A DNA stretch of 64,000 bases from positions 18,014,150 to 18,078,149 of the forward strand of contig NC_134026.1 in the NCBI RefSeq assembly GCF_964204645.1. The letters run 5' to 3'. A program made the translations under genes and the position numbers. This stretch comes from Tubulanus polymorphus. Its lineage: Eukaryota > Animalia > Nemertea. This document shows positions 26,388 through 49,920 of the stretch, one piece after another. The notes under the pieces were generated by a model. It searched no databases. It was not told the origin of the DNA and was given only the letters and a program-made list of their open reading frames with translations. Positions within the stretch are counted from its first letter, which is position 1. Each line of letters starts with the position of its first letter.

Positions 26388-29300
26388 CTAGAATAAGTCA
26401 TCTTCGCAGACCATGTCCTCCTCTGCCTCACTACCTGCCCGGTCCGCGGAGTCGTTTTCGTATTCGTCTGTGTCCACGTCCATATCCTTGTGGGTACTGG
26501 CTGTGTTGGACGCACTGCCAATTTCTCTTTTCAGCTGCATGAGTACTTGAGCTCTAAACAGTTCCTTGTCTATATTGTCGTCTCCGACCAGGTTTGGATA
26601 GTGCGCTTGCATGATGAATTCCATTTCATCCATGTTGTCCGTATCGGTGAATGTTAGAATGTTTTCGGTCAAGTACTTGGCAAGCTTAGCCCAGCTTACG
26701 TCTCCATCCTCAATAGTATTGAGTAATTGGTCGATATCGATACGTTTTAGGGTAGCCTCTATCCTCTCGTCCCATCCCCAGTCGCTGGCGCCTTTTCCTG
26801 CGTTGAAATCTTTTCGTTTGTATGCCGGGCACATCGGTCTTACAACCAACACGTTAACATCGCTCTTGGTCATCATGGCCGCGTTTGTGTCGACTGTGTT
26901 GTCTTTGAACCGTTTTAGACTTGGGTTTTGTAACAAGTTGTTGAGTACATAACCCTGGTGGTTATTTGGACAACTCCCGCTTTTGACAGAGATGTAGTAG
27001 TTTTTGCCGTCTTTGGAATCGTACGAAGAAAATTGATGGGTACCGTACACGATGGCAACTCCCGAGATATTGTTGAAGCACGCAGTGTCGGTGATAGCGG
27101 GTTGTATATTACATTCAGCCATGTAGGCCGTTTTCAGCTGCTTCATGGTGTTACCGATTCCCTCAACTTTGTTGGGTAGAACGAGTTGTGTCAGGCATAA
27201 ATCGGTAAGAGCGGCTTTCCTTTCGCAATCTCTTGAACCCACCATATTGACAGCTCTATGGCTTCCTTCGTCAAGGGTAATCTGACGGAATTTCTTTGTT
27301 GGTGTTTTGGCTCCATAGACCACACTGGCTGACAACAGGGCGTGTAGTTGTCCCACGAACGTATATCTAATCTGTTTACCTTCTTCCATCAGAGTTTGTT
27401 TGAGAAAGTCGTAGGTAAGGTCGGATATTCTCAGCGATTTCTTATCGAAAATGTCAGCCAAGTGTTGAGATACAAAACGCACTAAACTACCGTGTTTGCC
27501 GACACACTTTCTTGTACCATCTTCTAGTTTAGTTACGTTGCAAGATCTCATTTCAGTGTTCAAATCGTCAAATCTTCTGGCTAGGCCGCGCAGCAATCCT
27601 TTGAGATCGCGATCAACGTGCATGGCCAAGTCAGGTCCGTTGGTTTTTGTTTCTCAGAGAAATTCTACGATATGACCAATGCCCTTTGTTATTGTGTCTT
27701 CTCGGGTGAATCCATCGCCGGCGAAAAACTTTGTCAACATACCGGGCTGAGTTATTATGTTGCCGATGGTTTTTATGTCCGCTTTCAGAATTGGGTAGTT
27801 TGCATTGTATAACTCGTTCAGGTCGCCAGCTTCACCTTGGATATTGTAAGTTGACGAAGTTAGCGTATCTGCAGACGAGTGGCCGCCGACCAAAAGCATA
27901 GCTTCATCCTCTTGATTCTCCTTTCTCTCCTTTTCACGTTTGAGTGCCAGTTGAACGCTGGTCGCATCAGCAGTTGCGTTGTCTTGATGGGTATTGTTAG
28001 AACTGCCGTCAGTTGATGGTTTTGGGGAACAGTTGGTGGTATTTGTTAGATGAGGTTTCTTGGCATCCTCAAAATGGAACAAATCACCCTTGTACACGTA
28101 CTGGGTCGGGTAGGTCAAATTGTCTACCATGATGGTTTTGTTTTTCCTACGTTCTCCATCATCTTTGATGGCCTCTTTCGAGAAAAACAGATGAGGTAAA
28201 TTGACACTCTGCATCTTGTTTTTGGATGAAGCTACGGCTTTCATACGTGTCGCAATCCAAATTGATTGATTGGCTGGGTACTCTTCATCGTCGTCTTTTT
28301 CCGAGTCTTCGGATTCACTGGCACTACCGGATTCGTTGTCGACTCTTTCTTTTTTGATCGATTTCTTCTTCCCCTCTTCATCTTCGCCAATGTCCATGTT
28401 GTCTTCGTTTGCTTTGAAGAAATCGTTGATAAAATGGGTACGCATATCCACACTGGTCGAGTTAACTATTCCAGTGCAAGGTCCGCCTTTATTTTCTCGT
28501 TTCAACAGATCGGCACACGATACATGGTTTACAATGCCGACTTCACCTTTGTGAACTGCCTCGGTAACAACCATGTGTTTGCACAGACAAAACGCTTGTG
28601 TAAGTGCCATCGCTTTCATATGAGGACTAGAGACCAAGTCTGTTGGTGCGTAGCCGGTCATTTTTCTGTTGAGCTCCTTTTCGTTTGATTCTGTATGAAT
28701 TTTCACAAGTCCGCTTCCGACATCTCGTTGTAATTCGTCTATACCCATACCTAGAACTTCTGCTGTTCTGTGAAATACTTTGCTGGCGTATGAGACTACA
28801 TTTTGCACGTAAATCCTAAAGAGGACTGTTGCGGTTTTAGTTTTGAATTCTTCATCTTGTTGCATTACGATGCGTTTCATTGTCTCCTTACAACGAATCA
28901 CGATTTGATCGTCTGTAGTTGGGTAAAGTTCTTTATCCGTTTCCATGTACGTCTGACGCCACTTGGCCATCATCGCAATCAATTCGTCCATGAATCCGTC
29001 TTGTTGAATGGTAGTCAGAACGGTCTTTTGTAGAGATGGTTCAGCTGTAGCGGCATCAGTGCTATCGTCATTTTCCTTGGGTAATTGACTTAGGATAAAA
29101 GACAGTCTGGCCACTAACAACGAGTTTGCGATATGACGTTCCAGGGTAGCATATTGGTCTTCCTTGTTAACTACTTCTGAATCAACCGCTTCCTCTGTTG
29201 TCTGTGGTGAATTGGGTAATTCAGCATTTTTTGATTTCTTGCTGACCTTCTTGGATTTTTTCAAGGACTTGTGTTTTTTCCCATCTTTCCTCTTACGCTT

Positions 29301-32300
29301 TCTGCTGCTACTGGTCTCGTCGTCATCGTCCGATGAGGATGAAGCGTCGTCACTGCTGCTATCTGAACTCTCATTTGCCGCAGTAGTTTCCTCGTCTGTC
29401 TTTTTGTCGGAATTTTCCAACAAACTTTTGTAAACGTTCATTGTCATCGACTTGGACTTGACACAATCGACCAATATCTTCAACTCTGCTGCATTGGCGC
29501 CAACGACCTCGTAAATTGCATTACGAAGGGCGCTGTCTACAAGCATATCCTCGTGTAACATGTCTTCGGTGACAATCGTGTCTTTAGATTTGTTGTTGCC
29601 CTGGGTAGTCTGCTGCTTGCGTTTTTCAGTCTTGGCCCACTCTACTGCATTTTTGTTATCGAAAAACATTTCTATCCAGTCTGTTGGCTTTACTTTGACG
29701 TCGATCAGTTTCGATTGGTTGTTTTCACTTTGAATCTGATCAATCTTTTCGGAGACAGAGGCATCATCGTCTGTTTTTTTCAGACTTGTTATGTCCATGG
29801 CTTTTTGGAAAGATGGCATGAAGCGAACATTGTTGTTCACGACGTTGCTCAAAATTACCAAGGGTATGGCCTTTGAGAAGGTAGACACAGTTTTGTTGTA
29901 CTTTTTGTCTTTTTTCTTTTCCAAATCGGCACTCTTTTCTACGACTCCTGGGACAGCTGCTGACGTGGTCGCGGTATCAGCCGTATTAGATCCGGACGAA
30001 TCCGTGCCTTCTTTCTGGGTAGTGGCTGTTGGGTCTGTTGTTGTACCAGGGACACTGGTCTCTGCCGCCTTTGCGTCACTCTCTTCTTTGAATTTGTTCC
30101 TTTTCAAGTTCCTTGGTTGATACTTAAACTTGTCCTCCGTATGAACGATCGCCAGCCCACCGAATTTGTTTGCGTTTTCGATTCCAGACTTTTTGCACAC
30201 CAACATACCGTGAATATTTGCACTCCTATTAGAAGCCGCATTGGTGTCCAGGACGTTCTGGTTGTTTGAGTCGTTGGTAAGGAGATTATAAAAGTTTTTC
30301 CCATTGTCCATTACCAACATGGGCTTGAGTTCACCACCCACAATGAGTGTTATGATACAGTGGGTCAGATAACAGAAACAAAATTGTTTCTTTGTAGAGT
30401 CGTAGTAGGGTAATCCGCTGTAACAGTCGGGACACTCTTCGTTGGGCTTAATTTTTCCACCGCGTCGCGTAGATCTCACCGCCTTGTTTTCAAACACACT
30501 AATTTGATGCTTACCACTGGAGCCCTCTGGGAACAGAACATTTTCCAATTGGGTAATATCTCCTTTGCACACAATCAACAACCATTTGGTTATCATGTTG
30601 GTCAATCGCGCACACGAGTATTTGGCCAATTTGGCAAATAGGATGTCGAATATTGTACTCATTCGGTCGATGTGTGATCCAGAGCGACAGATTGTTCTAT
30701 AGAAACCGTGTCGTTTATCTTTTTTATCGTTGTGGAACATTTTATAGATGAGTTCGGGGCTAAGTTCTCCAAATTCGTCAAGACCCGTTTCGGTACAATA
30801 CATCTCGCTGCCTTTTGACTTGATGGCTTTTATTTTGTTTATACGAGCATTGTCTGTCTTGTACTTGTTTCCCCAACTGTCCTTGATGTGTACATCGGTG
30901 ACCACTCGGTCGGTAAAGGCACCACCGCTAATATCGAACATCATGCTTACTTCAAAACCGTATCCACTCGACACTATACCGTTGGCGTACATGTGTGTTA
31001 ATTTGAGCTTTTCTTCCTCTGTGAGTTCTGATACCTTTTTCGGTAGCTTTACCTTATTGCCAGTGGGTAACTTGGTCTCTGGATCTATTTCGTCCACTTC
31101 AAGCACAACGATGAGGTTTTCTTGTTTTGCCAAATCAGCAACCTTGTTGTCTTGGGGAGTCTTTTCGTTGTTGTACGATTCTACAAATTTATCCAACTTG
31201 TTCTTCAATTGTAGACGCATGTACTCTTGGTCGTTGGCTGGGTAATTCGCTCTCAGGTTGTCACCTATTATTCGTTCTCTGGTGTCGCTGCGTTCCAACT
31301 CTTTACGTTTTTCTTCCGTGAGATTTGCGCGTTCTTTGTTTTTGTCCGATTTCATCTTAGTCAACATTTCTTCCGTGTAGCGGACCTTGCCGTTATGGGT
31401 AACATATGTTTCTTCGCCATACATGTTTACATTTCCGCGACCGTTTCGCATTCGACTTAGAGGAATCGCATCGCTGATAATGTTGGCGAGCATGCTGGTC
31501 TTCTGATCGACCGTTGAGACGCGCTGTTGGCTATCTTTAGAGATGGTACCGTGTACCAAATCCAAATGGAACATGTAATTTACCATGGCCATTTTTTGTG
31601 AATATACTTGGTCTCTGAACACTTTGTTGTTCTTAAATTTCTTCAACTCTTCAATGGTGGGCTTCATTTGAATCGTGTTGGGTGTATTGGACCTGACAAC
31701 AACGTCTACCAGAGAGTAAAGTTTATCACAGATGCCTTTATGAAGTGGGTGAGTATCTTCTACGTAGTGCAAGTGACAGTCGAGTATAGTGTCGGCTAGA
31801 GTCGATCCAAGTTTAGCCCTGGCCTCTGGACCATCGATGTAGGCAGCCAAATCACGACGTCTTAGATTGAATTCATTTGGGCCGTACACAGGCACCATGA
31901 AACAATAATTGTCTAACAGGTCATCTCGAGCTTGGTTTTTCTCACTTACAGGTGATTCTTCGCCGCCGTCGGTTGTGGTTGTGGTGGTGGTGGTGGTGGA
32001 GTCAGGACCTTGGATTACCGGTTTAATGAACCGATGTCTGACCTGACCATTCAAGTAACCATTGTTGATATGCATTTTGAATGTGACAGGACTGACTCGG
32101 AGACACGAATCAGATTGTCGTTTTGACGAGGACGCGGTGGTGGACTTGCCGTTGTCTTTTTTAGACTTTGATTTTTTCTTTTTGGTCGTGGACGATGCAT
32201 TGTCGTCTCTCATAGCCTTGTTGTATTTTTTGTCGGCTATATCGCGACAGTACGTCAATGCAGTGGTCTTGTCTAAAAACAGCGCCAACACAAAATCGCA

Positions 32301-33005
32301 TCGTTGCTCTTCGGGTATATTGGGAAAGTGTCTTGTCCAAATTCCTTCTAGCAATTCTTGATCCATCTCGGTAAAGCCCGTGTAAATGGTATCCGAGTTG
32401 TATCCCTCGGATGATGCCAAAAACGCGGCGCTGTTATCGGTGTCGGTGGTTATCAATTCCTTCATTCCTTTAGCCATTTTGTTAACCGTTTCGGTTTCGA
32501 TTAGGGGTATTTTTCCAGGTTCACCCTTGTGGAACTTTTCGTACTCAGGTGAAACGATGTGCTGACCACCGCTAAGAATTATGGCAGTTGTACATGCCGG
32601 AGCGCCATTGTTTTTAAAACTAATAGTCAACTTGTCACCGCTGCCGTCATAGGTTACACTTCGCGATACTTGAATAGTGGTCGGCATAGAAGGAAAACCC
32701 GGATTCGGCAGCTTGCTATCAACTGTTCCCGTTTGACCGTAAATTTCAACTCCTACCATGTCTATAGGGTCTATACCGGCGAACTTGCTTTTATGTATGG
32801 CCACAATGCTGTTTATAACAGCTGTAACCGACGATTCGCCTGCGTAAATATCGTTCATATCTTGTTTATTTTGGGCAATTGCTTCTTCGTATCTGTTTAC
32901 GAATACTTTCTCTCCGGCATCATCACCACTATTATCAGAACCACCTGTCTTGGTCGCGCTGCTGCCAGTGGTGTTGGGTTTTTGTTGAGAAAAGTATTGA
33001 TCCAT
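26388..33005 (-). CDS. ~2200-codon viral ORF interrupted by one in-frame TGA (1783 aa + 8 codons + 413 aa); candidate ICP8-like ssDNA-binding protein
   Basis: TTT CTC TGA GAA ACA AAA ACC AAC GGA CCT GAC TTG GCC ATG: both track ORFs share one frame. CPDC...CFCYLTHC Zn-like cluster and acidic tail ending EDDLF. The function is weak inference; the coding status is strong. Confidence 0.6.
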
Positions 33006-34066: not shown

Positions 34067-34136
34067 GCCTAAAAAATATCTAAAAACTATTTTTATTTTC
34101 TGTCTGTAAACAAATTTCACAATAACACCATGTGTG

Positions 34137-36185
34137 CTAATAATTTACAACAAATGTTGTTTGTGCTTTGTTGGTAGATCTATCATAGGTGTAGCACCCG
34201 TCTAAGTTGAGATCGGCAGATCTGTCCTTGAGTTTGTATTTTTCAATCATAGCTCTGGTAGGCTTCATGGGTATGGTGGGAGGACCGTCGCCAGTACTGC
34301 ATTTATAAGCCAAGTACCAACTCATGCAAACGCACACGCTAATATCGTCCAACTTGCCAGATCCTTTACCGGTCACTTTGTTATTTTCGTATCTCACATT
34401 ACCCAACTGTTGGCTAATTTCAAAGGGTACGCTACAATTTGGTCCCGTGTACATGCTGACCGTGATCACAGGACTTGCACACTTTATTTGACCCACGTTC
34501 AGATAATCATGGAAGAACGACATGTACACGTTCACCTTTTCACCTTGCAACAAATAACCAACGTTGTACGTTCTCCTTGCAAAATCTTCGTTTTCAGCTG
34601 TTTTAGCCGTAACCGAATAACAGTCTGCTTCTAACATTGAAGACAAGTCCCGGTTGATGGCTGTATTCGTGGCATTATCCAAGTGAGTGCCTAATTTCGT
34701 CTTGTATTTACCGGCAATGTTTTTCAGCCTAGACTTCCACCGGGTGTTCAACTGACGCTGAGCTGAGAGTCGTGCACTTCTCATCGACTGTCTGATGGCC
34801 ACTTCATTGTCATCGGACGAATACTCATCTTCGCTGCTACTGCTGCATTCTGAATTGCCCGGAGACCACTCGTCCGTACTATCATCAACTGCCAAAGAAA
34901 ACTTGGCTCGTTTCGTTAATTTGCGCGAGTATTTATCCGAATTGATGTTGGATCGTTTCGTCCTGTTCTGACGCTGCAATCGTTCGTATGCCTTATTGGC
35001 CGAGGTGAGTTCTCGTTTCATCTGCTGCAAAGAAACGTCTTTAAAGTTGCCACCCTCATCTCCGTGATACTTGGCGTATTGGGCTGCCGACAACGAGTGG
35101 ACCACATAATCCACCGATACATGTTGAAGCAGATAACTATTTTGGTAAAAGTTATTGTCAAATTCAGTTTTGAAATGATTCAACTGAAAGCTGTTGGCTT
35201 CAACTGCAAGTACATATTTGTCAAAATAGTTGTAGTATCGGGTAATCATAACGAACAGGGTAATCAATCGTTTGGCAATGGCTATGGACGGAGAGGCACT
35301 ATGAGTATCTACTTCTGAAGCATCGAACGTATCTGCTGCCACTACGACGTAGTATTCTGGTTGCGATTTTACTTTGCTCATAATACATACGGCATTTTTA
35401 CTGATATCTTTGGGTGCCGTGTCGGTATACACGTAAAGTCGTTTATCGATAACCATCGGATTTTCAACCACACCGTCTATGTGCTGTTTGAGTAAAAACG
35501 GATCTCCGGCCAAAATGCTAAGTCCCCGATCGTTGGCCATTTTACCGAATCTCATCGCCTGTTCCACTAACGCATTGACACTTTGACCTTTTTGCATGTC
35601 TGGTGGCAGTAGACCCATTTCGGCCAAGGGTACACATTTATTTTTCGTGGCCATGACTTCGGTGAGATTTCTATGTCCCAAGCTCAGAGACAAATGGTAA
35701 GGTTGGCCCATGTTGCAGAGACACCGTGTAACCAGCACTCCTTTTTGTAGAACTGCGGGTAAGTGAGCTTTACAGACGAATACCACACTGAGAAATCTGA
35801 TCTGCGGATGTCGTTTTGATTCCAAGTCCATCCATTCTGCACCAGCATTTTTCCCATTATTGAGTTTTATACCCAACTTGGCGGCTACCACAGCAGCTTG
35901 GTTTTTCTTCTGCTGTTTAGTAATCAACTGACGCTCCTCCATGGTGAGTTTCGACAGCGCCTTTTGAATCGTACGTTCGTTCATGTCTGCAAAGTCACCA
36001 CCACTGCTACTGCTCAGAGATTCATTTTCAAGCTGTTCGTTGGTAAGTCGATGTGAACAGAAAATCTCCAGCCGACTGTCTTTGATTTGTATAAATCCAA
36101 GTATGACGGCAGTGTGTTCGTCAGTGTTTGATATGAAGGCTGCTTCGTCCCACATAAACTTCGTTGCCGAGTCTCCGCGACCAGC
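34137..36185 (-). CDS. TRM3: DNA packaging terminase ATPase/nuclease subunit, exon 2
   Basis: Acceptor tttttttcttgtctactttcag, then AGRGDSATKFMWDEAAFI (Walker B; cf. GIRGQDFNLLFVDEANFI). Also VVFVCKAH..RCLC and RNase H-like LYVYTD, LAVEANS, GKGSGKLDDISVCVCM. Confidence 0.93.
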   Translation of the reverse strand, partial: AGRGDSATKFMWDEAAFISNTDEHTAVILGFIQIKDSRLEIFCSHRLTNEQLENESLSSSSGGDFADMNERTIQKALSKLTMEERQLITKQQKKNQAAVVAAKLGIKLNNGKNAGAEWMDLESKRHPQIRFLSVVFVCKAHLPAVLQKGVLVTRCLCNMGQPYHLSLSLGHRNLTEVMATKNKCVPLAEMGLLPPDMQKGQSVNALVEQAMRFGKMANDRGLSILAGDPFLLKQHIDGVVENPMVIDKRLYVYTDTAPKDISKNAVCIMSKVKSQPEYYVVVAADTFDASEVDTHSASPSIAIAKRLITLFVMITRYYNYFDKYVLAVEANSFQLNHFKTEFDNNFYQNSYLLQHVSVDYVVHSLSAAQYAKYHGDEGGNFKDVSLQQMKRELTSANKAYERLQRQNRTKRSNINSDKYSRKLTKRAKFSLAVDDSTDEWSPGNSECSSSSEDEYSSDDNEVAIRQSMRSARLSAQRQLNTRWKSRLKNIAGKYKTKLGTHLDNATNTAINRDLSSMLEADCYSVTAKTAENEDFARRTYNVGYLLQGEKVNVYMSFFHDYLNVGQIKCASPVITVSMYTGPNCSVPFEISQQLGNVRYENNKVTGKGSGKLDDISVCVCMSWYLAYKCSTGDGPPTIPMKPTRAMIEKYKLKDRSADLNLDGCYTYDRSTNKAQTTFVVNY

Positions 36186-36221
36186 CTGAAAGTAGACAAG
36201 AAAAAAACACCATTATAACAT

Positions 36222-36810
36222 TTAGGGAAGCGGAGGAAATGCGACACGGCGGTATTGTGTCCTGCGGCTGTCGGACAAGAACCGAGACGAGATACACGAT
36301 AGCAGCTGCAAGCCGTGTCAGGATGATGGTGAAATGTGTTGGAGAATCGGTGAAGTGTTGGACAATGTGAAAAATTGTGAAAGTTGGAAATTTCAAAAAA
36401 GTCCCCCAGAAAATCAAAAACAGTGACACTATACTATAGCTGGGGTACCGGGGTTCTGGGGTATTTGGGGTACTTGGGGTACCAAAAAAATAGTACTAAT
36501 TCAAGTTCCAAAAATTCTGTTAAAATGGAACAGTCACCTGTTTTTTTTCTGGTACCCCAAGTACCCCAAATACCCCGGAACCCCGGTACCCCAGCTATAG
36601 TATAGTGTCACTATTTTCGATTTTCTGGGGGACTGACTTTGGTTCACATCCATCACAAACTTTTTTTAATTTTTCCAATTTTTGTAAGTTCTTCATTTTG
36701 TCGACTTGGTCGTTTTTGGTTAACAGACTTGAAACGGCTACAGCATGCTTCGTCTCGGTTCTTGTCCGACAGCCGCGAGACACATTACCGCCGTGTCGCA
36801 TTTCCGCTTC
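36222..36810. repeat. Nested palindromic element, copy 1 (candidate origin or recombination site)
   Basis: Inner ~85-bp inverted arms (AGTCCCCCAGAAAATC...GGGGTACC) around a ~60-bp loop. Outer inverted ~55-bp motif GCGACACGGCGGTA.TGTGTC..GCGGCTGTCGGACAAGAACCGAGACG. Confidence 0.9.
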
Positions 36811-36971
36811 TCTAATCAAGTATGGGTGGACTGAATGGAGGGTTTGATAAAATATTATTGAGCAAGGTAGCATGTTTGATATACACTCACAATTGGTCAC
36901 AGAGTTACGTATGAGAATAAAAACATATAAGGACTACCCTACTACCCATAATTTGTTATCAATACGCTAAG

Positions 36972-37904
36972 TTGCTTCTCGCAAACGCTTATCGGTTTAA
37001 TATGACCATGTCTAAGTTAACAACACGATCGTCAAAATGCAACAAGTTGTCGTTCGTGGTGGCGACAATGTTTGTCTTTATTGCGATCTCTATAGCCAGT
37101 GCAGACTCTCTTGTCGCCGATGGATACAATGCCAGAATTGACAAGCATGGATACAAATTGGTCGACATGACATACAAACAGACTAGTCAAAATAAAGAAA
37201 CATCGCTGATTGCCTCAGACAAGCATACCAGCAGAGAAGATATGCCTTCCGAATTCTTGGTGAAAATCGAAATACCCAAATTACAAACTCAGAACGCCGG
37301 CAATCAAGCTACCGAGACAAAGTTTTTCATGTACTTTATGCGAAACAGTCACGACATTTTCACCCGCTATCAATTCCTTCATGTTATTGGAGCTAGTGCC
37401 ACCGACATTGCGACGAAAAAATGGGGAAGCGTTTCCGCCAACAAACTTTTGTCTGCCGAGAAGACATACTTGAACAAGAACGACCAACAAGAATTTACCA
37501 AGTTATATGGCGAGGTTGCTAAGATTAACTGGGGACACATTGCCGGTGTGTCGAAAATACAAGAAGGATCAGATGACCATTCCATGTTATTGGGAACCGA
37601 CGCGACTGCTAGTCAAACCAATGTGGCAATCGATTTGTACAAAGAACACGGCACCAACAAGATTTTTTCAATTAATTTCCATATGTTCAATACGCTTGAA
37701 ATGAGTACCCGAGCAAAAGAACTCGTCGAGCTTCAACGACTGGAAATGAGAGGTCGTGAAGAAATTGACAGAGATACCACCCACAGGGGTCAGATTGTAA
37801 AGGGTCAACTTGGTTTTGGCGCAATTATTGGAATTGTGTTGGCAGCGGTAACTGTTTTGATTTTGTTAATTTGCCTGATCACTTGGTGTGTGAAACGTCG
37901 TTAA
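36972..37904 (+). CDS. Type I membrane protein in the terminase intron
   Basis: N-terminal hydrophobic signal (FVVATMFVFIAISIASA), C-terminal TM and KRR tail. The true start is probably a downstream ATG (~37002-37008). Confidence 0.8.
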   Translation: MLLANAYRFNMTMSKLTTRSSKCNKLSFVVATMFVFIAISIASADSLVADGYNARIDKHGYKLVDMTYKQTSQNKETSLIASDKHTSREDMPSEFLVKIEIPKLQTQNAGNQATETKFFMYFMRNSHDIFTRYQFLHVIGASATDIATKKWGSVSANKLLSAEKTYLNKNDQQEFTKLYGEVAKINWGHIAGVSKIQEGSDDHSMLLGTDATASQTNVAIDLYKEHGTNKIFSINFHMFNTLEMSTRAKELVELQRLEMRGREEIDRDTTHRGQIVKGQLGFGAIIGIVLAAVTVLILLICLITWCVKRR

Positions 37905-38028
37905 GGACAAAGAGGACTGGTGAGAAAAAAATGTATCTACGATTTTTGTAACCCACAATGTTCATATTTTATATTTCTAAATAATTGTACATTTTGCCAT
38001 TTATATCCTACCCACTACAAAGAACAAC

Positions 38029-39291
38029 ATGTTCTCTCCCGGACATTGTCATCCGTTTGTTGGGTGTATTTACGAATCTCTGGCGTTTGATAGTTTCATA
38101 TCGCAACACCAACTGTTATGTGGACTCATTCACACAATAGACACAGTTCATCGATCAAGCGTATTTATGTGTTATACCCATGGTAGACTTCACACGTGTA
38201 CGATGACGCGAGAAAATTGTCAGCTTACCCAATCAGAGTACGACCGTAACAAATTTATATGCGCCTTTTCAAAACAGACGTGTGGTGCAGAAAATCCAGA
38301 GATTATAAGTATACTAAACGAACAAAGTTTAGAAGACCGAGTATCACCCGATCGAGAAATGAATTGGATGCAAGAGTCTATTTTACACAAAGCTAAACAA
38401 TCGGCCATTGCGGGTAATGGTGGCAACACTAGATCGAAAGATATGATGTGGTTAAACGAATATATGGGTGATAGTTGTGGCGGCGAGGAGACGTGTGGTG
38501 GTGGAATGGCTAGTGGTTCCGATGGCGAGCAAGGTTGTGGTGGCACGTCCAACGGAATGAGTTACTCAAAACGACACTTGCTCGGTTTTGCGACCACTAG
38601 CGATGAACGTAGCGCAATGAAAATGACAGAAGACCGACACACAAAAGTTAGAGTCCGTACTGAAATTGTAAAGTTGGGTACTCCTGTAACATGGCATAAC
38701 AATGTCAGCGATGGAATTTGTCACCTAAATAGTGAGATGTACGCGTATATAGTTCGCAACGTTACCCTTAATACTTATTTGAATGATAATTGTTCTAATT
38801 TACTCGAAATATACAAAGAACATAGTAGAAATCTGGTGTTGTCTCATCACATCAACGGTGTCGATATCTGGGAATTGTCCAAGTATTTTTTCCACATAGC
38901 GGTCGATTACATTTTCTATAATTGTGCATGTCTGTGTCTTGAAGTTGACAAATTGATGCAAAAGTACCCTGAGCTGACCGAAACGATTCACGGTAGAGAC
39001 ATGTTAACTCTGAAAACCAATAGTGGTGGTCCAAGTGATTATTGGAAAGATGTAATTGATCAAGGCAAAAAACGTATTGACTTGATTTTAAAAAAGGGCA
39101 AGAAAAAGTCCGACAATCACAAACACCACGGTAAAATCGAAAAATATCGTCACGCCGTCAGCCATAAGTCTACTGCGTTTTACGGTAATTTTATGGCAAA
39201 GTTGAAGACAGATCTGGCAGCCGGATCATCAAACCCAATATCATCATGTCTTGGCATTTCAAAGATAGCCGACACAGCGGTTACCCATTAA
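38029..39291 (+). CDS. Cys/His Zn-binding protein, UL92/ORF31/VLTF2-like late transcription factor candidate
   Basis: VFMCYTHGRLHTC..RENC...FICAFSK resembles the C-x2/3-x-H-x-C...C...VC pattern of HCMV UL92 and NCLDV VLTF2. Motif-level only. Confidence 0.6.
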   Translation: MFSPGHCHPFVGCIYESLAFDSFISQHQLLCGLIHTIDTVHRSSVFMCYTHGRLHTCTMTRENCQLTQSEYDRNKFICAFSKQTCGAENPEIISILNEQSLEDRVSPDREMNWMQESILHKAKQSAIAGNGGNTRSKDMMWLNEYMGDSCGGEETCGGGMASGSDGEQGCGGTSNGMSYSKRHLLGFATTSDERSAMKMTEDRHTKVRVRTEIVKLGTPVTWHNNVSDGICHLNSEMYAYIVRNVTLNTYLNDNCSNLLEIYKEHSRNLVLSHHINGVDIWELSKYFFHIAVDYIFYNCACLCLEVDKLMQKYPELTETIHGRDMLTLKTNSGGPSDYWKDVIDQGKKRIDLILKKGKKKSDNHKHHGKIEKYRHAVSHKSTAFYGNFMAKLKTDLAAGSSNPISSCLGISKIADTAVTH

Positions 39292-40076
39292 TTACAACTT
39301 CAGATGTAAAATACAATGATTTTAGACGAGCTCTGCGCATGACCCCCTTGGACGGTCTTGGGAAGGACACAAATCCGAAATGGTACAATTCTATGAACGG
39401 TAGAGATCGATCTTTGGTGTTGTCGGTCCACTTAAATTTAAAGAAACGTAGAGAAGCATTTGGTGATAGGAATTCTACGACATCGAGTTACAATCGTGAA
39501 ATGGATCACTTGGCGGCATACGCACACCATGTGGGACCTTTGCCAAAAATGGATGGTGAACCGTTTCCTGATTTACCCAAACTAAAGTACAGAGTCGGCT
39601 ACTACAGAGAGTGGAACAACAATACAGAAGTGATCAACTATGAAGTGAGTACAAGTGATTTTATGCCGATTCTAGACTACATGACTTTTGAAACCGACGT
39701 ACCAGACAACGATGAACAGGAGAAAAATAAATCGCGACGCAAAAAGAGAAATAAAGACGATATGAACTCTGTCAATGTAAATTTTAAGTATAAAAAACAA
39801 TTGTTCACCGTTTTGGACTTGTATCCTAGCTTGGATCTTGTACCGACCCCTAGATCATCTTTACCCAATGCCCGACTACCACCACCCCAGTCTGATACAA
39901 CCGGTCGCAAGGTATCCTTTATAGAAATAGTCGATACGGATACAACCAGTCAACACGTTATAAATCTACGAGTGACCAAGTACTCGAATCCGTTCGATGC
40001 AAGTGAAAAACACTTTGTAAAGTTACTACCTACTGAAAAACTTTACAAGAAACGGCTTCGACAGACATGGAATTAG
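39246..40076 (+). CDS. Hypothetical viral protein (276 aa)
   Basis: Long ORF overlapping both neighbours; no recognised motif. Confidence 0.7.
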   Translation: MSWHFKDSRHSGYPLITTSDVKYNDFRRALRMTPLDGLGKDTNPKWYNSMNGRDRSLVLSVHLNLKKRREAFGDRNSTTSSYNREMDHLAAYAHHVGPLPKMDGEPFPDLPKLKYRVGYYREWNNNTEVINYEVSTSDFMPILDYMTFETDVPDNDEQEKNKSRRKKRNKDDMNSVNVNFKYKKQLFTVLDLYPSLDLVPTPRSSLPNARLPPPQSDTTGRKVSFIEIVDTDTTSQHVINLRVTKYSNPFDASEKHFVKLLPTEKLYKKRLRQTWN

Positions 40077-41920
40077 AAGAGGTGTTGGCAAATAAATTAA
40101 GTGAAAAAATGGATAAAATGTCTACTCCGATAACTGGATCCATTCAGACTAGACTGAGAAAGAGGAAAAAACAAGCAAAACACCGCGGTACTGAAAGTAG
40201 CAGCGAGGAAGAAGGCGAAGACGATGAAGTGATTAAGCCGGCCGAGGATTTTGTGATGGATTTACTCAATCAAATCGGTACAGGGAACAATGCAGACAAT
40301 CAAATATCGGTAGAAGAAGAAATGCGAAGTAGTAGACGTCCCAAGCGATCACAAAGAAAAAAACAAAAAGTTGTTCGTTTTGAATTGGACCAGGTCACTC
40401 CGTTGTCATCAGAACCCATGGAAGTTGATGAAGAGGAGTCTGCGGACGTTGTTATACCCAACCCAACAAACGATGCATGTCCCTTACCCATTTACACACC
40501 ACCTAATAAGACTGGAGCAATTGTTGAAGACATCGACGTACGTTTCTCTCTGTTGTGGGTGGACGAACCACATTTTAAGGCGGTCTACAACAGTTTTGGT
40601 AGTTGTACACATAGAACAGCGTGGCCTATAGACAATATAGCAACAGCAATACAACTCATGAAGGATATGGCTATAACGGAATTTATAAGTGTTGTGAGTG
40701 AAGCTCGACCTTACTGTCAAACAGAAAAACACGTGGAGAAGGTTCTAAATAATTTGAAACGTTTTGATAAACAGTCAGCAAACTCTACTGGTAATTGTAA
40801 CACAGCAGATGAATTACACACGTTTGCCAGTAGCGGAAGTGTGTGTCTACCCATATACTCATTGGACGATGCTGCGATGACCACTGATAGTCACATTACG
40901 ATAATCGACAAAGATTTGAGCAAAGTTAAACTTGTCAGAGGCATCCTATTGGAAAAACTCTTACAAAGTCCGTTGACATCACCCACAGATGTGCTGGACG
41001 AAACAAGTAGGTTGGATGAGAGCGGTCAATTTCAATACACAATGAGAAAACAGTTGTTCTCCGTATGCAATTCGACAACCGTGAGTGGGGGTGCGGATAT
41101 TACAATCGGTGCTGTGTTGTCACCTTCTGAAAATCCATTTCTGAACATTAACCTAGCGCCTTGTATCCAAGAAAACGAAAGAGCAACGAAATTGATCAGC
41201 GACATTCGAAATATTCTTACTTGGGACAAATTGCCACGAAATTGGTTTCAATATAGAATGTTCAAAAAGAAATCGGCTACACTCATCTACACCACTAATA
41301 AGTGGGGTGATCAAAGCAGTAAAGTCATAGGTGATTCTACAACTTCGGATAAATACCAACATTATTCAATGTATCAACTTCAACAAAGTGGTTGTGGCGT
41401 GGATCGTTTCGATTCGGTTACAGAATACATGCCTAGCAACCTCAAAGGTAGGAAGATATCTGTTGGTACCGACGAACAACAAGTTCTATCAACCGTAGAC
41501 ATTACCCGTGCAGGAGTGCAGAGTAGACTTGCAAGTTTAAACACTGGTCATTACTTGTCTAATTTCAACACGTTTGGAATCTTTAATCTATCAGTGGATA
41601 CACACAAGACCATGTATCAAAGGCTAAAGTCCTACGTAAAACCTTTGACTATAACCGAACATTGTTGTATGGCATACGATTCAAGTTCAGATACTTATGT
41701 TATAACTTCCCCTCTATTACCCACCACTATAACCAATCATGATAAAACTTGTGTGTTGTATATGGAAGGACGCAAGTCCCGTTTAGCCACAGTCGGCACT
41801 CATGGATCAGTAGTCAGTAGCTCTATGGTCGAGGACAACAACTCGTTGAATATATTATGTGAAAACTATACGTGTTACCATGAACTTGGTCAAATGTCAA
41901 AGAACTCTGTGATTTTGTAA
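40067..41920 (+). CDS. Hypothetical viral protein (617 aa) with basic/acidic NLS-like N-terminus
   Basis: Long ORF; last of a 3'-coterminal cluster ending at AATAAA sites ~41973-41988. Confidence 0.78.
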   Translation: MELEEVLANKLSEKMDKMSTPITGSIQTRLRKRKKQAKHRGTESSSEEEGEDDEVIKPAEDFVMDLLNQIGTGNNADNQISVEEEMRSSRRPKRSQRKKQKVVRFELDQVTPLSSEPMEVDEEESADVVIPNPTNDACPLPIYTPPNKTGAIVEDIDVRFSLLWVDEPHFKAVYNSFGSCTHRTAWPIDNIATAIQLMKDMAITEFISVVSEARPYCQTEKHVEKVLNNLKRFDKQSANSTGNCNTADELHTFASSGSVCLPIYSLDDAAMTTDSHITIIDKDLSKVKLVRGILLEKLLQSPLTSPTDVLDETSRLDESGQFQYTMRKQLFSVCNSTTVSGGADITIGAVLSPSENPFLNINLAPCIQENERATKLISDIRNILTWDKLPRNWFQYRMFKKKSATLIYTTNKWGDQSSKVIGDSTTSDKYQHYSMYQLQQSGCGVDRFDSVTEYMPSNLKGRKISVGTDEQQVLSTVDITRAGVQSRLASLNTGHYLSNFNTFGIFNLSVDTHKTMYQRLKSYVKPLTITEHCCMAYDSSSDTYVITSPLLPTTITNHDKTCVLYMEGRKSRLATVGTHGSVVSSSMVEDNNSLNILCENYTCYHELGQMSKNSVIL

Positions 41921-42019
41921 ATGTAAATATGCTGCTTTAGAATTTGATTTGTGGATCTATGGTAATGGTATCAATAAATAAAAATAAAGTGACTTTTAGT
42001 AAAAAAATATTGCACTTAC

Positions 42020-43432
42020 TTCTTTTTCTCGGATGATCAGTGTTCTGAAGGAATTTGATGAGAAGGGTTGCTTATCCAAACAGCGACCATCCAGGGTATA
42101 ACGTTTGTAACGAACGTAGAGTATCGAGTATTGTGAATCTTTTTGAATGTATCCTTGCAGATAGTAGTCTTTTTCGTCTATATCCGACTCATCTTTACTG
42201 TGTCGAATTTTGACGGTGGTACACGTGTGGTTATTGGGATTGGGAATGTTACCACCAGCAGTATTACCGATCACAATTTCACGCATTTTATTTTTTTGAA
42301 CCTGTTTCTTGGTCTCCATGAAGTTTTTCTTTTCCTTTTCGTTGAATTCCTTCAACATTTCGGGTACGACGTCTTGCATGGTTTTGAACGCATTTGTAGT
42401 CAATCGACCACTAGCCGTTCCGTAAATGTTCTTGTGACCGGCATAAGGAAACCAAACAATTTCCATACAACTGTTGGCTATGTGCGACACAGTTTTACCC
42501 AAACGTCTTTGCACTTCTAAAATCATGACAGTGTATTGTTTAAGTATCATGTACACTTTCAAACATTCATCATACGTCAAATAGTCCATGTTGAGTTTGC
42601 GTTTCAGCAAAAGGAACAAAAGTTGGGCATATTGCTCCATGTGACTACGTTTTAGATTGTGAGCAAGAGTTTCGAATTTGTTAAGACATTGAAAACGGGC
42701 CAAGTCAAAACAGTGCATTTTTGCATAGTCAGTGCCTGGTGCTGTTTTCTTGTCTTGATGAATGGTAACTGTGATATTAGTGTTGGGCTTTGTTGAATTG
42801 ACATTATCATCGCCACCACCAACATTATCTACTAAATTCCACCACATGAATTTAGAATCATAGTTGTCTTTGGGTAATTTTTTGTTTGTACCTTCATCGT
42901 AGTCGTCCTCCTCACAGTCATCTTCGTCATCAGAGTCCAATGGACCATTACAACCATTTTCACTGTTTGATAAAATCAAAGTTTTCATCCACTTATAAGA
43001 GAGAAACTCTTCGCTCCAGCGAAGGGTGTTAAATACTCTATGTTGGTCGGTAGCGTTTAAGTTCATTCTCGAGGCTATGCATATTGTTTTGACAGTGTCT
43101 GGTTGAATTGTGTTGTCTCGAGCAATTTTTTTCAACACGAACGCTAAACTATTGTTCAACGTTTCAAATGCACTGTTGTTACGATAGTTTTGCAGATCGT
43201 GTGAAGAGGTTGTTGCGGCTTTTAAAACAGTTTCTGGGTAAATGAGTCTTCTTTTAGGAGACTGTAATAAATCGGCCGTTTCGTTAACATACTGCAATGT
43301 TTTGCCGCAATCGAAATGTGAGAGTTTAGTGTCTCTAACTATTCCTATGCCTGGGTAAGTTACGTATTTGGGGAAACAAAGTTGTTCACCGTTTCTCGTT
43401 CTTTTGAACGCTATTATACCCTCCCGAGTCAT
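42020..43432 (-). CDS. TRM3: Terminase ATPase subunit, exon 1
   Basis: Walker A VMILEVQRRLGKT (cf. VFLVPRRHGKT). Donor GAA|GTAAGT after 471 codons, phase 0, joins in frame to 36185. Confidence 0.92.
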
Positions 43433-43533: not shown

Positions 43534-44382
43534 TTAATAATACAATATGCTACTATTACATGTGATATCATCATTCCACGATAAATGTTTACTACGTGCT
43601 ACAGGTATATAAGTTTCAAAGTCCGTTTGTCTACAAATGTTTTCTATATATTCCATATTTTCAGCATACATTGGTTCTACACAAGGCGACTCCTCGGTAT
43701 CCAAACAAGCGATATTCTCAAAGTCCAATTTCTTTGGAGACACCATCTTCACGTTTTTGCCTAACACTACATTAATGTTTTTAGTTGGCGAAATATTCAC
43801 AATGGGAAAGTCTTTTTTGTCTTCTATTTTAGCAGTCTTGGGCGGTGTAACGTCGGGTATCAAAAAAAGATAAACTTGTTTTTCTGGTGTTGAATTCGTG
43901 TTGATCTGGGTAACAGTAGTGGAGATTTGCTGATTTGAAAATTGGATTTCAGGCGCAATGGTACACGTTGGTGTCTTTGCTGGAGATGGAGTTTTACACA
44001 TTATTGGCTTCAACAGAGACAAAGTTTTGCTAATTTTGTTAGGTGAAGGAGATTTACATTTCCTAGGCGGTGATTTTTCCACGCTCACTTCTTTTACTTT
44101 TTTCGTTGAAGTATACTTGTAATCAGGATACTTTAACTTGTGTTTTGCTTTCTCGATGTCAGTTGCTTCGATATAAAATTCCTTTTCTTCTGCGGGTAAC
44201 AAATTCCAAATTTCAGCAATTAGTGCACTGGCTTTTGTCTGGTGTTGATTTTTGTAGTAATCTGCCATATATGATCGAAAAATCATAAACGGGTTTCTTG
44301 GCCTTGGAATGTGATTTACCTTGATTAGAAGTGTTCTGTAATGTCCGCAGAGAAAATGTGACTGGAATTGTACCAAACGCAT
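43534..44382 (-). CDS. SOX/TCF/MATA-type HMG-box protein
   Basis: HIPRPRNPFMIFR...SALIAEIWNLLPAEEKEFYIEA...KHKLKYPDYKY, followed by an SP/TP-rich tail. Confidence 0.9.
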   Translation of the reverse strand: MRLVQFQSHFLCGHYRTLLIKVNHIPRPRNPFMIFRSYMADYYKNQHQTKASALIAEIWNLLPAEEKEFYIEATDIEKAKHKLKYPDYKYTSTKKVKEVSVEKSPPRKCKSPSPNKISKTLSLLKPIMCKTPSPAKTPTCTIAPEIQFSNQQISTTVTQINTNSTPEKQVYLFLIPDVTPPKTAKIEDKKDFPIVNISPTKNINVVLGKNVKMVSPKKLDFENIACLDTEESPCVEPMYAENMEYIENICRQTDFETYIPVARSKHLSWNDDITCNSSILYY

Positions 44383-44472: not shown

Positions 44473-47400
44473 CTATTCTGCGCTGTTGGTTGGTTTAGTT
44501 AGGTATAACATTTGTAACTTTGTATCCATCTCTGCATTCTCCTTAATATTTTTGTTCAACTCTTTAATAGCATAGTTGCCAATCACACCGTTCTTAGCGT
44601 AGTCCAAATTATGATCGAGACGGGTATTGCCGTGTTGACCAACAGTTCTTTTAATTGTTTCCTTTTCCATCGTTAATAATTTAACTACAACGTAGATGAG
44701 CAACGGTGTGAATATGCAGTTCAAAATAACACTGGTTAAATTGATAACAGCACCATATTTCTCACCGAAGGTTTCCACGTGTAGTGCTACAGTATGTTTT
44801 ACATAGTCCATGTAGCTCATATGTCGTATGTTGAATGGTAATTTCTTTTGATCGTTGACAGTATCGCCCGGACCACCACCAATGTACACAGACTGACCAA
44901 AGTCTCCTCCGCCACTACCCACAGACCGTCTGTTTCTACGAGGTGCAACTGTTGTTGTTTTGCCGTTTTTACCTTTCTTTCCTTCGTTAGCAGTTCTGAA
45001 TCTATTGTATATCGGTGCGTGTAGATTTCCATCTAAAAGAAGCTCTTCGGCTGTGTTAGGCAAAGAGGAGGGTAGGTTGGTCGTAGAATATGGCCAAAAG
45101 TGATGAGGAACAGAATCGCGTTCCTGACGTTTCAATCGCTGCTCGTTAAGCCTATTGATGGCAGTGGCATCCAACGTGGATAAAAATTTACTCGGTGATT
45201 TCGGACTCATGGCTTCTGCAAAAGACACCTCAATAAGGTGATGGCGGATTCCTTCATCCAGACCAGAGTGATAGCCGGTGTTGTGGCTGGTTTCATCGGG
45301 TTTCGGAACATAGTCCATATCTGTGCTAAGGAAATTGTTGTTGATTCCACCTCCTCCACCACCGATCATGTTGGTAATATGAGTACCGCCGGTATTTGTG
45401 GTTTTATCCAAAGGGTCGCGCTTTCCTTTATGGAAAACATTGTACTCGGACGACATGGGAGTTGTCTTGCGTTCCTCTACATGATGAAGCTTGCCTGTAA
45501 CGCCCGAAAACGTTACCTTTTGATTACCTACGTTAAAGTGTAATCTACCAGGCATTCTATTACAAGGCGTGATTTCGTTCAATTCGGGACTTAGCCGTTT
45601 TCCGTTATCGAGAACTTGCATATAGCTAACTCCGAGTTCTTTGGACATAACTTTGACAATTGGACTCACATAACACAAGTCAGACAAATGTGGTACTTCA
45701 TCTCTTAGTCGTGATTGTAGATTTCTATAAATCGTTGGAATCGGCATGCCTGGGTAGTCTAATTTCAACGAGGGTACGACTCTCATATCTTTCCACAATA
45801 CGGTCTGGCATCTATGAATGGCCCAGTCGTCGCCAGACTTTGTTATATGAATGTGTTGATCTGGGTATAGAGTTTCGGCCATGGCTGTTGGATCGAGGCC
45901 ATAAATTCGTTCGCTTAAACGTTCAAGTGCCAGTTTCGTTCTTGACATTTGATTGTGCATTTGACCCATACGGTTGTTAACCAAATTGAAGTTGTCTGCT
46001 TCATCTCCGCCAATGTTTAACGGTAACCAAGTAGCAGATTGGATGTTGGTGAATTTTGTGGTTGTTGGTGCCGTTGGGTTAGCGGGTCTAGCCGTATTGG
46101 CTACATTAGCTCCAGTCGTACCGATTCTCGTCAACGTAACAACACCCTTAATACATTTCCAATCGTGGTCATAGGCATCCGTGTATTTTGTGCTCACACC
46201 CGAACACACAGCTTCATCCAAATCGGTAGGAGTACCGGTCACCTCTGGGTTAAAGCCGTGTCGATGAACATACCGCCTGGAGTTGGTTAACGATTCTTCA
46301 TTAGTGTATTCTTGTGCTGGTTTGATGCTGTACTTTAATTTGTTTCGATTCCACCGTTCTACATACCTTTCGGGTTTACCTATTTGACTTTTGTCTACAA
46401 ATTGCAATATGACCGATCCATCTACCATATACGTTTGGTAAACGCCGCTCGGTTGATCCATACACTTGGTCGCGCCGTCTTCACCTAAAGGGTTGATATC
46501 CAGCCTATTGAAGTGTGCTGCATCTATCTTCTGTGTATCGTAAACTTTGAAAACGTGTGGTGAATTCAACAGATCTTTGGTATTTTCCACAAAAGTGGTA
46601 ATTTGATTCACGGTGTTGCTTGCAGAAGACCCAAGTGCCATGTCGGTGTGCTGAAGACCGCTAACGATTTTAGCCGTGACAGGAATTTCCATTAATGGTG
46701 TAAACGGACACAAGGGCACAGAAGTGTCCAAGTCGTGAATGTTGTTGTCAATTACAGACCACATTAAAGTAGCGGCTGGGTGATCGGAATTTCTAACGTG
46801 AGTGTAGCCGAAGTTACCATCTTTTGTAATTCCATATTCTGGCTCTGAAGATAGAGGGTCGATTTGGGCAGAGTTTATTCGTTTTCCAATCTTGGACATT
46901 TGTGCCGATCCGAAAGGTGTCGATACTCGTTTACCACCTTTAGTCGCTTGATAAGGGAACGAATACGTTACGGGTACATTTGTGTCTAAGATACAATTTC
47001 TAACATACAAGTGACCGGCACCTCTGTTTAGACAGACCGACATCAGTTGCGATCGAACGTAGTCGTTGAAAATCCCCTTTACGGTATTGTCGGTTACGTT
47101 TGATCGAAATTGATTGGCCGACACTTGAGCCATGGGTAGTGTTTCGGTAATGTTAATGGCCGGTAGCGAACTTGTATCGAAGATTTCACATTTCTTCTGT
47201 TCATGCCATTTTTGACATTCATCGGCCGTAACACCGTGCTCTAAAGTGGGTAGCCAGGTTAGCGTGGGTTCCCATGCATTTTCATTGCATCTGAAGGAAA
47301 CGTGATGAAACATGGCACGACACGCAAAAATATTGTCCATTTTATAGACACGGTGATTCGGTGTAAACACCTTTAGGGTACCTGTGGTTATGCTGGTGGA

Positions 47401-48150
47401 AGTGGTAGCCGGGGTTGCTTTCGGTCCACGTAGTTGTTCTGCTGCATCGGCCAGAGTGTCCACGTGAATATATCGATGTTTTTGCTTCTCGCATACCTTT
47501 GCGTTTCTAGCGTCGCTTACTTCCCTGAGTTTGTTTGCATTTTTGAATAAAATGGTGAACAGCGGAAACGGTCTTGTTCTAGCCTTATCATCGGCGTCGT
47601 AGTGAGCGGTGTGTTTTACCTTGGCGCATATAGACATTTTTTTATACGCCGCTCTTTCTCGCCAAGTTGGTAACTTTGGGAAAATTGTGTTTTGTACATC
47701 TTCATGTGTAACCGAGATGGTGTAGACAAAATGACTTGCTCCACCCACAGATGGCTCGCGACCATCAACACCTGCTGTACCGCCAATGCTTAAATCGGTG
47801 AAATCTGTAGCCTTGTCTGGGTACGCATCACAAAGTTTTAGACCCGCCGATTCATCGTAGAACGATTGAGCTGCAATAAAATTCGAATCCTCTACTTTGA
47901 TTTGCAGCGGTGCTTGAATTATTTCTGGATCAACCACATATTCGTCCCCTGTTATCAATCTAAATAAGTTGTCGCCAACTTTTGCATTCGTGCTATTTGC
48001 AGCAGCTAATTTTAATTCCAAAACATCGGTAAGTTTTCTGAGATTATACTGGGTAGTGTAGGTACCGTCGCCGGCCAATGAATATCTACAACAACAACAA
48101 CATAGTAGCATAGCTATGATTAAAAGTTTGTTTATTTGAAGTCGCGGCAT
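44473..48150 (-). CDS. gB: Glycoprotein B-like class III fusion protein
   Basis: Signal peptide and C-terminal TM. GLDPTAMAETLY...KSGDDWAIHRCQTV...CYVSPIV...EITPC...HFNVG parallels gB KLNPNAIAS...LGDVMAVSTCVPV...CYSRPLV...IEPC...YFTFG. Confidence 0.8.
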   Translation of the reverse strand: MPRLQINKLLIIAMLLCCCCCRYSLAGDGTYTTQYNLRKLTDVLELKLAAANSTNAKVGDNLFRLITGDEYVVDPEIIQAPLQIKVEDSNFIAAQSFYDESAGLKLCDAYPDKATDFTDLSIGGTAGVDGREPSVGGASHFVYTISVTHEDVQNTIFPKLPTWRERAAYKKMSICAKVKHTAHYDADDKARTRPFPLFTILFKNANKLREVSDARNAKVCEKQKHRYIHVDTLADAAEQLRGPKATPATTSTSITTGTLKVFTPNHRVYKMDNIFACRAMFHHVSFRCNENAWEPTLTWLPTLEHGVTADECQKWHEQKKCEIFDTSSLPAINITETLPMAQVSANQFRSNVTDNTVKGIFNDYVRSQLMSVCLNRGAGHLYVRNCILDTNVPVTYSFPYQATKGGKRVSTPFGSAQMSKIGKRINSAQIDPLSSEPEYGITKDGNFGYTHVRNSDHPAATLMWSVIDNNIHDLDTSVPLCPFTPLMEIPVTAKIVSGLQHTDMALGSSASNTVNQITTFVENTKDLLNSPHVFKVYDTQKIDAAHFNRLDINPLGEDGATKCMDQPSGVYQTYMVDGSVILQFVDKSQIGKPERYVERWNRNKLKYSIKPAQEYTNEESLTNSRRYVHRHGFNPEVTGTPTDLDEAVCSGVSTKYTDAYDHDWKCIKGVVTLTRIGTTGANVANTARPANPTAPTTTKFTNIQSATWLPLNIGGDEADNFNLVNNRMGQMHNQMSRTKLALERLSERIYGLDPTAMAETLYPDQHIHITKSGDDWAIHRCQTVLWKDMRVVPSLKLDYPGMPIPTIYRNLQSRLRDEVPHLSDLCYVSPIVKVMSKELGVSYMQVLDNGKRLSPELNEITPCNRMPGRLHFNVGNQKVTFSGVTGKLHHVEERKTTPMSSEYNVFHKGKRDPLDKTTNTGGTHITNMIGGGGGGINNNFLSTDMDYVPKPDETSHNTGYHSGLDEGIRHHLIEVSFAEAMSPKSPSKFLSTLDATAINRLNEQRLKRQERDSVPHHFWPYSTTNLPSSLPNTAEELLLDGNLHAPIYNRFRTANEGKKGKNGKTTTVAPRRNRRSVGSGGGDFGQSVYIGGGPGDTVNDQKKLPFNIRHMSYMDYVKHTVALHVETFGEKYGAVINLTSVILNCIFTPLLIYVVVKLLTMEKETIKRTVGQHGNTRLDHNLDYAKNGVIGNYAIKELNKNIKENAEMDTKLQMLYLTKPTNSAE

Positions 48151-49901: not shown

Positions 49902-49920
49902 CTTGACGGCTTTCTGTGGG

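Follow-up and report, generated by a model that had tools for sequence, protein, structure and literature searches.

In orthoherpesviruses the terminase gene contains an intron with subfamily-specific nested genes (PMC3079670), and in the view of a 2026 review this conserved division of the gene may permit post-transcriptional control (PMC13595911). Abalone and amphioxus terminases are reported to be intronless (PMC2994540); the three-exon terminases of alloherpesviruses and the trans-spliced terminases of mirusviruses are split near Walker B and contain genes in a long intron (PMC12768974, PMC12567609). We analysed a stretch of 64,000 nucleotides (nt) from the ribbon worm Tubulanus polymorphus (NC_134026.1, positions 18,014,150 to 18,078,149; the window, to which all coordinates refer), which carries a TRM3/UL15-type terminase gene in two exons on the minus strand. 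It is quite probable, in our view, that this is the terminase of a herpes-like virus, split at the orthoherpesvirus codon, predicted to be spliced by the host and containing in its intron a likely UL92 homologue and a second conserved gene in antisense orientation, and that this arrangement is ancestral.

Exon 1 (42020..43432, minus strand) comprises 471 codons, ends with IIREKE and contains the Walker A motif VQRRLGKT (residues 307-314, about 42491-42514). It is followed by the phase-0 donor GTAAGT (42014..42019), which is the sole in-frame GT within codons 440-478. Exon 2 (34137..36185, minus strand, 682 codons) encodes an RNase H-like nuclease (Pfam DNA_pack_C, E 2.9e-8) with the Walker B motif FMWDE (about 36144-36158), and the message is predicted to end near 34095. 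The exon opens at 36185 with AGRGDSATKFMWDEAAF, preceded by the T-rich TTTTTTTCTTGTCTACTTTCAG. A pyrimidine tract and a CAG acceptor are located at 36186..36210, and a putative branch-point-like TATAAT precedes the tract. This acceptor has 15 pyrimidines at -20..-4, whereas the two further AGs within 36150-36260 have 6 and 10. The predicted U2-type phase-0 intron of 5,834 nt (36186..42019, minus strand), delimited by splice signals and a shared register, sits two codons ahead of the xxRG...DE Walker B motif.

To assign the gene we used hhalign with A2, an alignment of 13 full-length intronless terminases, which itself matches the chains of the HSV-1 UL15 structure (E 3e-42). Exon 1 reached Prob 97.2 and exon 2 Prob 99.9, and together with the DNA_pack_C match above the Pfam cut-off this places the gene in the Herpesvirales TRM3 (UL15-type) family. 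Walker A reads QRRLGKT in the window and xRRMGK(S/T) in the split terminases of loci L082-L088, instead of PRRxGK. The alignment of exon 1 extends to residue 466, corresponding to residue 315 of P0021. The five residues beyond it reach P0021 column 320 and the invariant R323-G324 sets A-G at 321-322; the exons therefore abut without a gap. A preliminary description of this DNA had proposed a phase-0 GT-AG intron after IIREKE, and signals, phase and length are borne out at the DNA level. At this level the split gene is real. Weighing against the proposal, the junction is read from DNA signals.

The same description placed the intron where UL15, UL89 and ORF29 have theirs. A scan for the orthoherpesvirus Walker B pattern yielded 79 viral loci, and in 78 of them an AG is found exactly two codons before RG. 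The window has the identical register, in agreement with the proposed placement; the only exception (L079) is a continuous phage-like terminase. On the donor side a GT follows an N-x-x exon end in 74 loci and a GC in one, while four have no donor by this pattern. The window sequence thus contains a predicted phase-0 GT-AG intron of the orthoherpesvirus type, two codons before the RG of xxRG...DEA. In duck enteritis virus the junction was mapped by reverse transcription PCR, with exon 2 starting AGTTTGCGAG (PMC3079670), and locus L061 has the same exon-2 start. The donor side printed in that report disagrees with the locus and was not used.

Both splice sites are conserved in relatives from malaco-like viruses. 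P0001 (47% identical) begins with L-Q and P0002 (45% identical) with S-F-Q, in each case immediately ahead of the same residues and at the same acceptor, and the exon-1 homologue P0062 runs on with V-S (GT.AG.) at the residue where exon 1 of the window ends. A total of 59 homologous proteins, P0002 included, were compared. In fourteen of them the sequence begins immediately ahead of RG..DE, and the residue at RG-3 is Q in 13 and K in one; codons for both are able to end in AG, which fits an acceptor. N, D or S occupies this position in 13 continuous homologues, and the remaining 32 start later and are uninformative for the acceptor. When 17 split-type proteins were used as queries in a scan, 13 metagenome loci were obtained, three of them without upstream DNA. 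All ten informative loci show a pyrimidine-rich AG at the same codon (with RS in place of RG in L087), together with two antisense genes in the same order, A (about 215-310 amino acids (aa), next to the acceptor) and then B (about 440-590 aa). Exon 1 is present in seven loci and always followed by a phase-0 GT (GTAAGT in five, GTGAGT and GTATGT in one each), which lies at profile columns 321-323 in six; L093 is less exactly placed. The introns of these seven loci measure 1,982-5,001 nt. Splice-site sequences, phase and position are accordingly shared by distant relatives. The number of independent lineages is reduced to about six by close kinship (L082-L086), which weakens the case. Scans with A1 (metagenome and viral contigs) and A3 (viral contigs) returned no loci.

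Walker A is absent from 46 of the 59 homologues, a warning that callers of open reading frames (ORFs) annotate exon 2 alone in these viruses. ORF71 of Malaco herpesvirus 4 (P0004; also P0063) was deposited as a terminase without Walker A. Because it is an exon-2-only ORF, the terminase of this virus is probably split too, with ORF71 as an unannotated exon 2. In the literature searched we found no prior report of this intron or of a UL92 homologue in malaco-like viruses; the search was partial and an earlier description is possible.

Six sequencing runs carry the stretch or part of it, and contigs of two of them, X1 (perhaps the sample behind the window) and X2 (the latter with another study and organism label), were compared with the window. 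X5 and X6 contribute small shares and were left aside. Four plus-strand ORFs of 300, 420, 276 and 617 aa lie inside the intron, as had been noted, but they represent three genes rather than four, two of them conserved, because ORF3 and ORF4 contain one motif each from the same family, which in the relatives is a single ORF. ORF1 (37002..37904) has a hydrophobic N-terminus and a C-terminal transmembrane segment and is predicted to be a lineage-specific type I membrane protein with a signal peptide; Pfam gave sub-threshold transmembrane matches only, and none of the 132 ORFs of the related loci matched at E<=0.5. ORF2 (38029..39291) is a member of the gene A family (hidden Markov model (HMM) E 1.2e-6, 0/1000 shuffles) with a Cys/His cluster at residues 48-81 (about 38170-38271). 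ORF3 (39246..40076) is the N-terminal piece of gene B (HMM positions 78-114, E 1.1e-6) and ORF4 (40067..41920) the C-terminal piece (positions 198-273, E 0.003), each reached by 0/1000 shuffles. The invariant W-x4-H is kept in ORF4, and ORF3 likewise keeps gene-B invariant residues. The frame is broken near 40060, and X2 differs in length at the same boundary. Since a TATAAA precedes ORF4 by 108 nt and the stop of ORF3 is followed by an AATAAA, the two may be expressed separately. Two AATAAA signals just before the donor (41973..41988, plus strand) are predicted to serve polyadenylation of the nested antisense unit.

The intron also contains a multicopy inverted-repeat insertion resembling a miniature inverted-repeat transposable element (36223..36805; repeats D7, D13, I1, I5, I18), which stops just short of the splice signals and spares the acceptor. 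It is probably host-derived; copies are found at 61.3-62.2 kb (61295-62245), and the X1 contig depth, which here and below is not a copy number, reaches up to 600 at the insertion versus about 16. Contigs of X1 and X2, with two organism labels, both break at this element. The comparison suggests that the insertion is common to X1 and X2.

UL92/ORF31 acts in the viral preinitiation complex with its partners UL79/87/91/95/49. It is part of the late-transcription complex of beta- and gammaherpesviruses (bioRxiv 2026.06.29.734287; PMC6005644), and according to a study of domain evolution (bioRxiv 10.1101/423525) UL92 was gained in the ancestor of these two groups. On the strength of sequence comparison we consider gene A a likely UL92 ortholog. 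When the UL92 HMM was applied to the 132 ORFs of related loci, the top nine were nine of the ten gene-A ORFs (best E 3.5e-6). In the other direction the gene-A HMM was applied to 1,254 ORFs, 45 of which are UL92, and the top nine were all UL92 members. Of nine gene-A members, six scored above all 300 shuffles; for two others 2 shuffles came up to the score, and for L091 24 did. The best alignment of the two families spans about 110 columns and extends into the helical part. The Cys/His spacing of gene A agrees with UL92: the pattern C-x2-[CH]...H-x-C...C...C-x2-[TS] is present in 45/45 UL92 members and, among 13 window ORFs, in ORF2 only. The start ATG of the nested gene lies 16-133 nt from the acceptor in seven loci, versus a median of 234 nt in 45 beta/gamma loci. 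The proposal that the second nested ORF resembles UL92/ORF31 is thereby supported as likely, mainly through the reciprocal matching of its homologues.

Alternatively, the intron could be homologous to that of orthoherpesviruses while gene A encodes a zinc-binding Cys/His protein unrelated to UL92, the nested genes being alike by convergence. Several results count against orthology and in part favour this alternative. ORF2 itself scores 5.4 bits on the UL92 HMM, which was matched by 5/2000 shuffles; at 5.2 bits it was also the best of 27 x 13 comparisons, which is not significant after correction. Scores in Pfam and hhalign are sub-threshold: PF03048 matches 1/10 gene-A members at E 0.87, with no match or gathering score for ORF2, and hhalign, low-powered here for remote pairs, gave Prob 1.3% for gene A against UL92. 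The reciprocal E-values are >=0.05, L091 was not recovered and the match lies mostly in the Cys/His region. The Cys/His pattern, which occurs in 0/2000 shuffles, was fitted post hoc after both families had been seen. For ORF2 the Atlas returned unnamed clusters below 0.9 only and a homologue search none among 1,847 candidates; gene A received no support from PDB, and single-sequence AlphaFold models of ORF2 and ORF4 had a pLDDT of 33 and unusable folds. Furthermore, gene B matches no orthoherpesvirus nested family, though UL17 and UL93 are recovered by the ORF32 HMM with medians of 24-28 bits. Nevertheless, an unrelated protein is unlikely in view of the top ranks obtained both ways, the length of the alignment, and a strand and place identical to those of UL92 with the ATG near the acceptor.

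For phylogenetic analysis a tree was calculated from 401 columns of the post-junction region in 45 sequences; most of the proteins with a late start, of the near-duplicates and of the short proteins were excluded. The terminase of the window groups with P0001-P0003 and P0004, which its source calls ORF71 of Malaco herpesvirus 4 (support 99.9/100). Eleven continuous terminases, including L001 and L002, form one clade with one late-start protein (99.8/99); P0040, labelled abalone herpesvirus, has the same junction as L002. The split lineages are found outside this intronless clade with moderate support, and a tree of 65 sequences gave the same picture. The terminase is thus located neither within nor next to the alpha-, beta- and gammaherpesviruses, and it is also outside the 99.8/99 clade of the classified Malacoherpesviridae, to which it is related as a lineage of its own. 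That the virus stands particularly near the orthoherpesviruses was considered and rejected, since the terminase groups with P0001-P0004 among malaco-like sequences. If the tree is rooted from the orthoherpesvirus branch, the intron is ancestral and was lost at least twice; rooting on the intronless clade leaves one gain that unites orthoherpesviruses with the split lineages. Under both rootings the layout is likely older than the alpha/beta/gamma radiation. An age beyond the vertebrate orthoherpesviruses, as suggested in the preliminary description, is therefore likely for the two-gene form, which by the tree is shared with viruses far outside Orthoherpesviridae. Points to the contrary are the ultrafast bootstrap values (UFBoot) of 74-76 at deep nodes, the continuous terminase P0056 outside the intronless clade, and a tree that is unrooted in effect, without an alloherpesvirus or mirusvirus outgroup. 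A search for an alloherpesvirus locus gave orthoherpesvirus-type and chance matches only.

The site before Walker B might also be a hotspot at which terminases were split repeatedly, in cis or in trans, by independent gains. Mirusvirus and alloherpesvirus terminases are indeed split near Walker B as well, at positions varying among clades (PMC12768974). We regard repeated gain as improbable, because the codon- and phase-exact match comes with the same antisense UL92-like neighbour and split genes are the majority outside a single intronless clade.

In 75 orthoherpesvirus loci the nested genes, which we take to be the families named here from size, order and recall, are arranged as ORF30-31-32-33 (32), UL91-92-93-94 (13) or UL17-UL16 (30), so that 45/75 have four genes with UL92 second. 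Four antisense ORFs with a UL92-like second one are present in the window likewise, and a mirror of the Kaposi's sarcoma-associated herpesvirus arrangement ORF29b-30-31-32-33-29a had been suggested. Orthology gene for gene to ORF30-31-32-33 (UL91-94) is very improbable: ORF3 and ORF4 correspond to two halves of a single family, the ORF1 membrane protein is absent from related introns, and the relatives have two genes with A first. Profiles of UL91/ORF30, UL93/ORF32/UL17 and UL94/ORF33/UL16 did not match any nested ORF of the window, and 27 families from orthoherpesvirus terminase neighbourhoods, run against 13 window ORFs, gave nothing beyond the weak UL92 score. The suggested mirror is therefore not retained; a UL92-like gene in a core of A then B was detected, and the four-gene block of beta- and gammaherpesviruses in its order was not. 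ORF1, a 300-aa signal-peptide/transmembrane protein, was rejected as ORF30/UL91 (roughly 80 aa), and ORF3 plus ORF4 were rejected as ORF32 plus ORF33 on account of their common gene B family. Position and size of gene B fit UL93/UL17, with -0.4 bits or less on the three HMMs (ORF32, UL93, UL17) and no match in Pfam, PDB or Atlas. A further possibility, brought to mind by the host-type insertion and the frame break in gene B, is that exon 1 and exon 2 stay unspliced here, as a decaying insertion or as two separately made proteins. It is hardly credible with both exons open over their full 471 and 682 codons, consensus splice sites, a split falling between Walker A and B, and 6/10 listed exon-2 differences to X2 synonymous (0/6 in ORF1, 1/4 in ORF2; 20/77 differences classified), and it would bear on the activity of this copy, not on the ancestry of the layout.

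The terminase locus likely belongs to a herpes-like virus that is endogenous in an animal genome. Up to about 25 kb the window is gene-poor and repeat-rich, and dense long single-exon ORFs occupy 26.4-60 kb. The left edge of the viral block is marked by a degenerate TTAGGG-like tract (24660-25060), which is bridged by no contig and across which the X1 contig depth falls from about 111 to 12-16. The loose end of X2 consists of perfect GGGTTA repeats before 25047. Two long X2 contigs differ from the window at <1% of positions; X2 has no cover at 18.5-24.5 kb in the left flank, which is not read as absence. Telomere-associated integration is known in human herpesvirus 6 (HHV-6) and Marek's disease virus, and integrated deep-branching herpesviruses are already known in lancelet, starfish and ribbon worm (among the sources bioRxiv 2025.04.19.649669 for both). 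The layout at the tract resembles the integrations of these two viruses, though the host here may be an invertebrate. A Kyakuja-Dileera-Zisupton transposase fragment (22975-23559, minus strand; PF18758, E 2.5e-11) sits about 1 kb left of the tract. The repeats and this transposase remnant point to an animal host, and the relatives of the virus suggest an invertebrate one.

Within the viral block an HMG-box gene (43534-44382, minus strand; PF00505, E 1.1e-8) lies directly upstream of terminase exon 1. The adjoining 1,225-aa protein (44473-48150, minus strand) has a signal peptide, many Cys residues, a basic RRNRRS site and a C-terminal transmembrane segment; by eye it resembles an envelope fusion protein, and it had no match in PDB or Pfam. 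Five long minus-strand ORFs (411, 1783, 538, 1542 and 465 aa; 26388-33005 and 48285-55954) gave no family matches and are probably core viral genes. Two plus-strand ORFs (57288-60197) both match one primase/helicase-type protein of L087, L084 and L002, with E 3.8e-14 for the malacoherpesvirus L002. In L087 a gene of this family lies within the terminase intron. Phmmer searches of PDB with single terminase exons and three large window ORFs gave nothing useful.

We propose that the minus-strand pre-mRNA would lose the 5,834 nt through the host U2 spliceosome and give a 1,153-aa ATPase-nuclease. Because exon 1 encodes Walker A and exon 2 encodes Walker B, neither half would work as a motor by itself, and packaging would be gated by splicing. 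The antisense genes would be transcribed from the plus strand and end at the AATAAA signals beside the donor; gene A, by analogy, could be a Zn-binding component of a UL92-type late-transcription apparatus. With needed viral genes inside it, the intron could not be lost unless these were moved, which would explain its persistence. According to this proposal the intron with UL92 inside would date back to an ancestor common to orthoherpesviruses and malaco-like viruses, with later loss of the intron in classified malacoherpesviruses and of UL92 in alphaherpesviruses. A wider version is tentative and, to us, somewhat more doubtful than credible: an antisense UL92-then-CVSC1 intron module ancestral to Herpesvirales, with UL92 and the late-transcription system in invertebrate herpesviruses, gene B as the UL93/UL17 ancestor and UL92 lost from alphaherpesviruses. 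Within this version orthoherpesviruses may descend from inside an intron-bearing invertebrate radiation.

A terminase intron with nested genes has so far been treated as an orthoherpesvirus hallmark, and malacoherpesviruses have been described as intronless. An orthoherpesvirus-type terminase intron with a two-gene antisense core, probably with UL92 in it, across malaco-like viruses is likely new here. A codon-exact intron together with a UL92-like gene at the same place, seen across about six divergent lineages of malaco-like viruses, would be a genomic character of a rare kind, one that connects two families with hardly any recognisable genes in common. The intronless state of the oyster and abalone viruses would become derived and UL92 would be dated earlier, and the conserved place would give a positional handle for naming orphan genes such as gene B.

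Compared to known systems, the terminases closest to that of the window are those of Malacoherpesviridae (abalone P0040/L002, the amphioxus element and Malaco herpesvirus 4), but L001 and L002 have continuous terminases whereas that of the window is split. Alloherpesviruses and mirusviruses resemble the window in a terminase split near Walker B with genes inside a long intron, and differ by three exons or trans-splicing and by other nested genes (Allo64, primase). Alphaherpesvirus UL15 has the same intron position and two antisense genes, UL17-UL16; however, these loci are without UL92, and neither gene A nor gene B gives a score with UL17 or UL16. UL89/ORF29 of beta- and gammaherpesviruses shares with this virus the codon-exact phase-0 intron and antisense nested genes; in both a UL92/ORF31-like gene lies towards the acceptor end, and a gene of roughly 500 aa comes after it. 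In contrast to their four-gene block, this virus group has two conserved nested genes, with no detectable UL91/ORF30 or UL94/ORF33.

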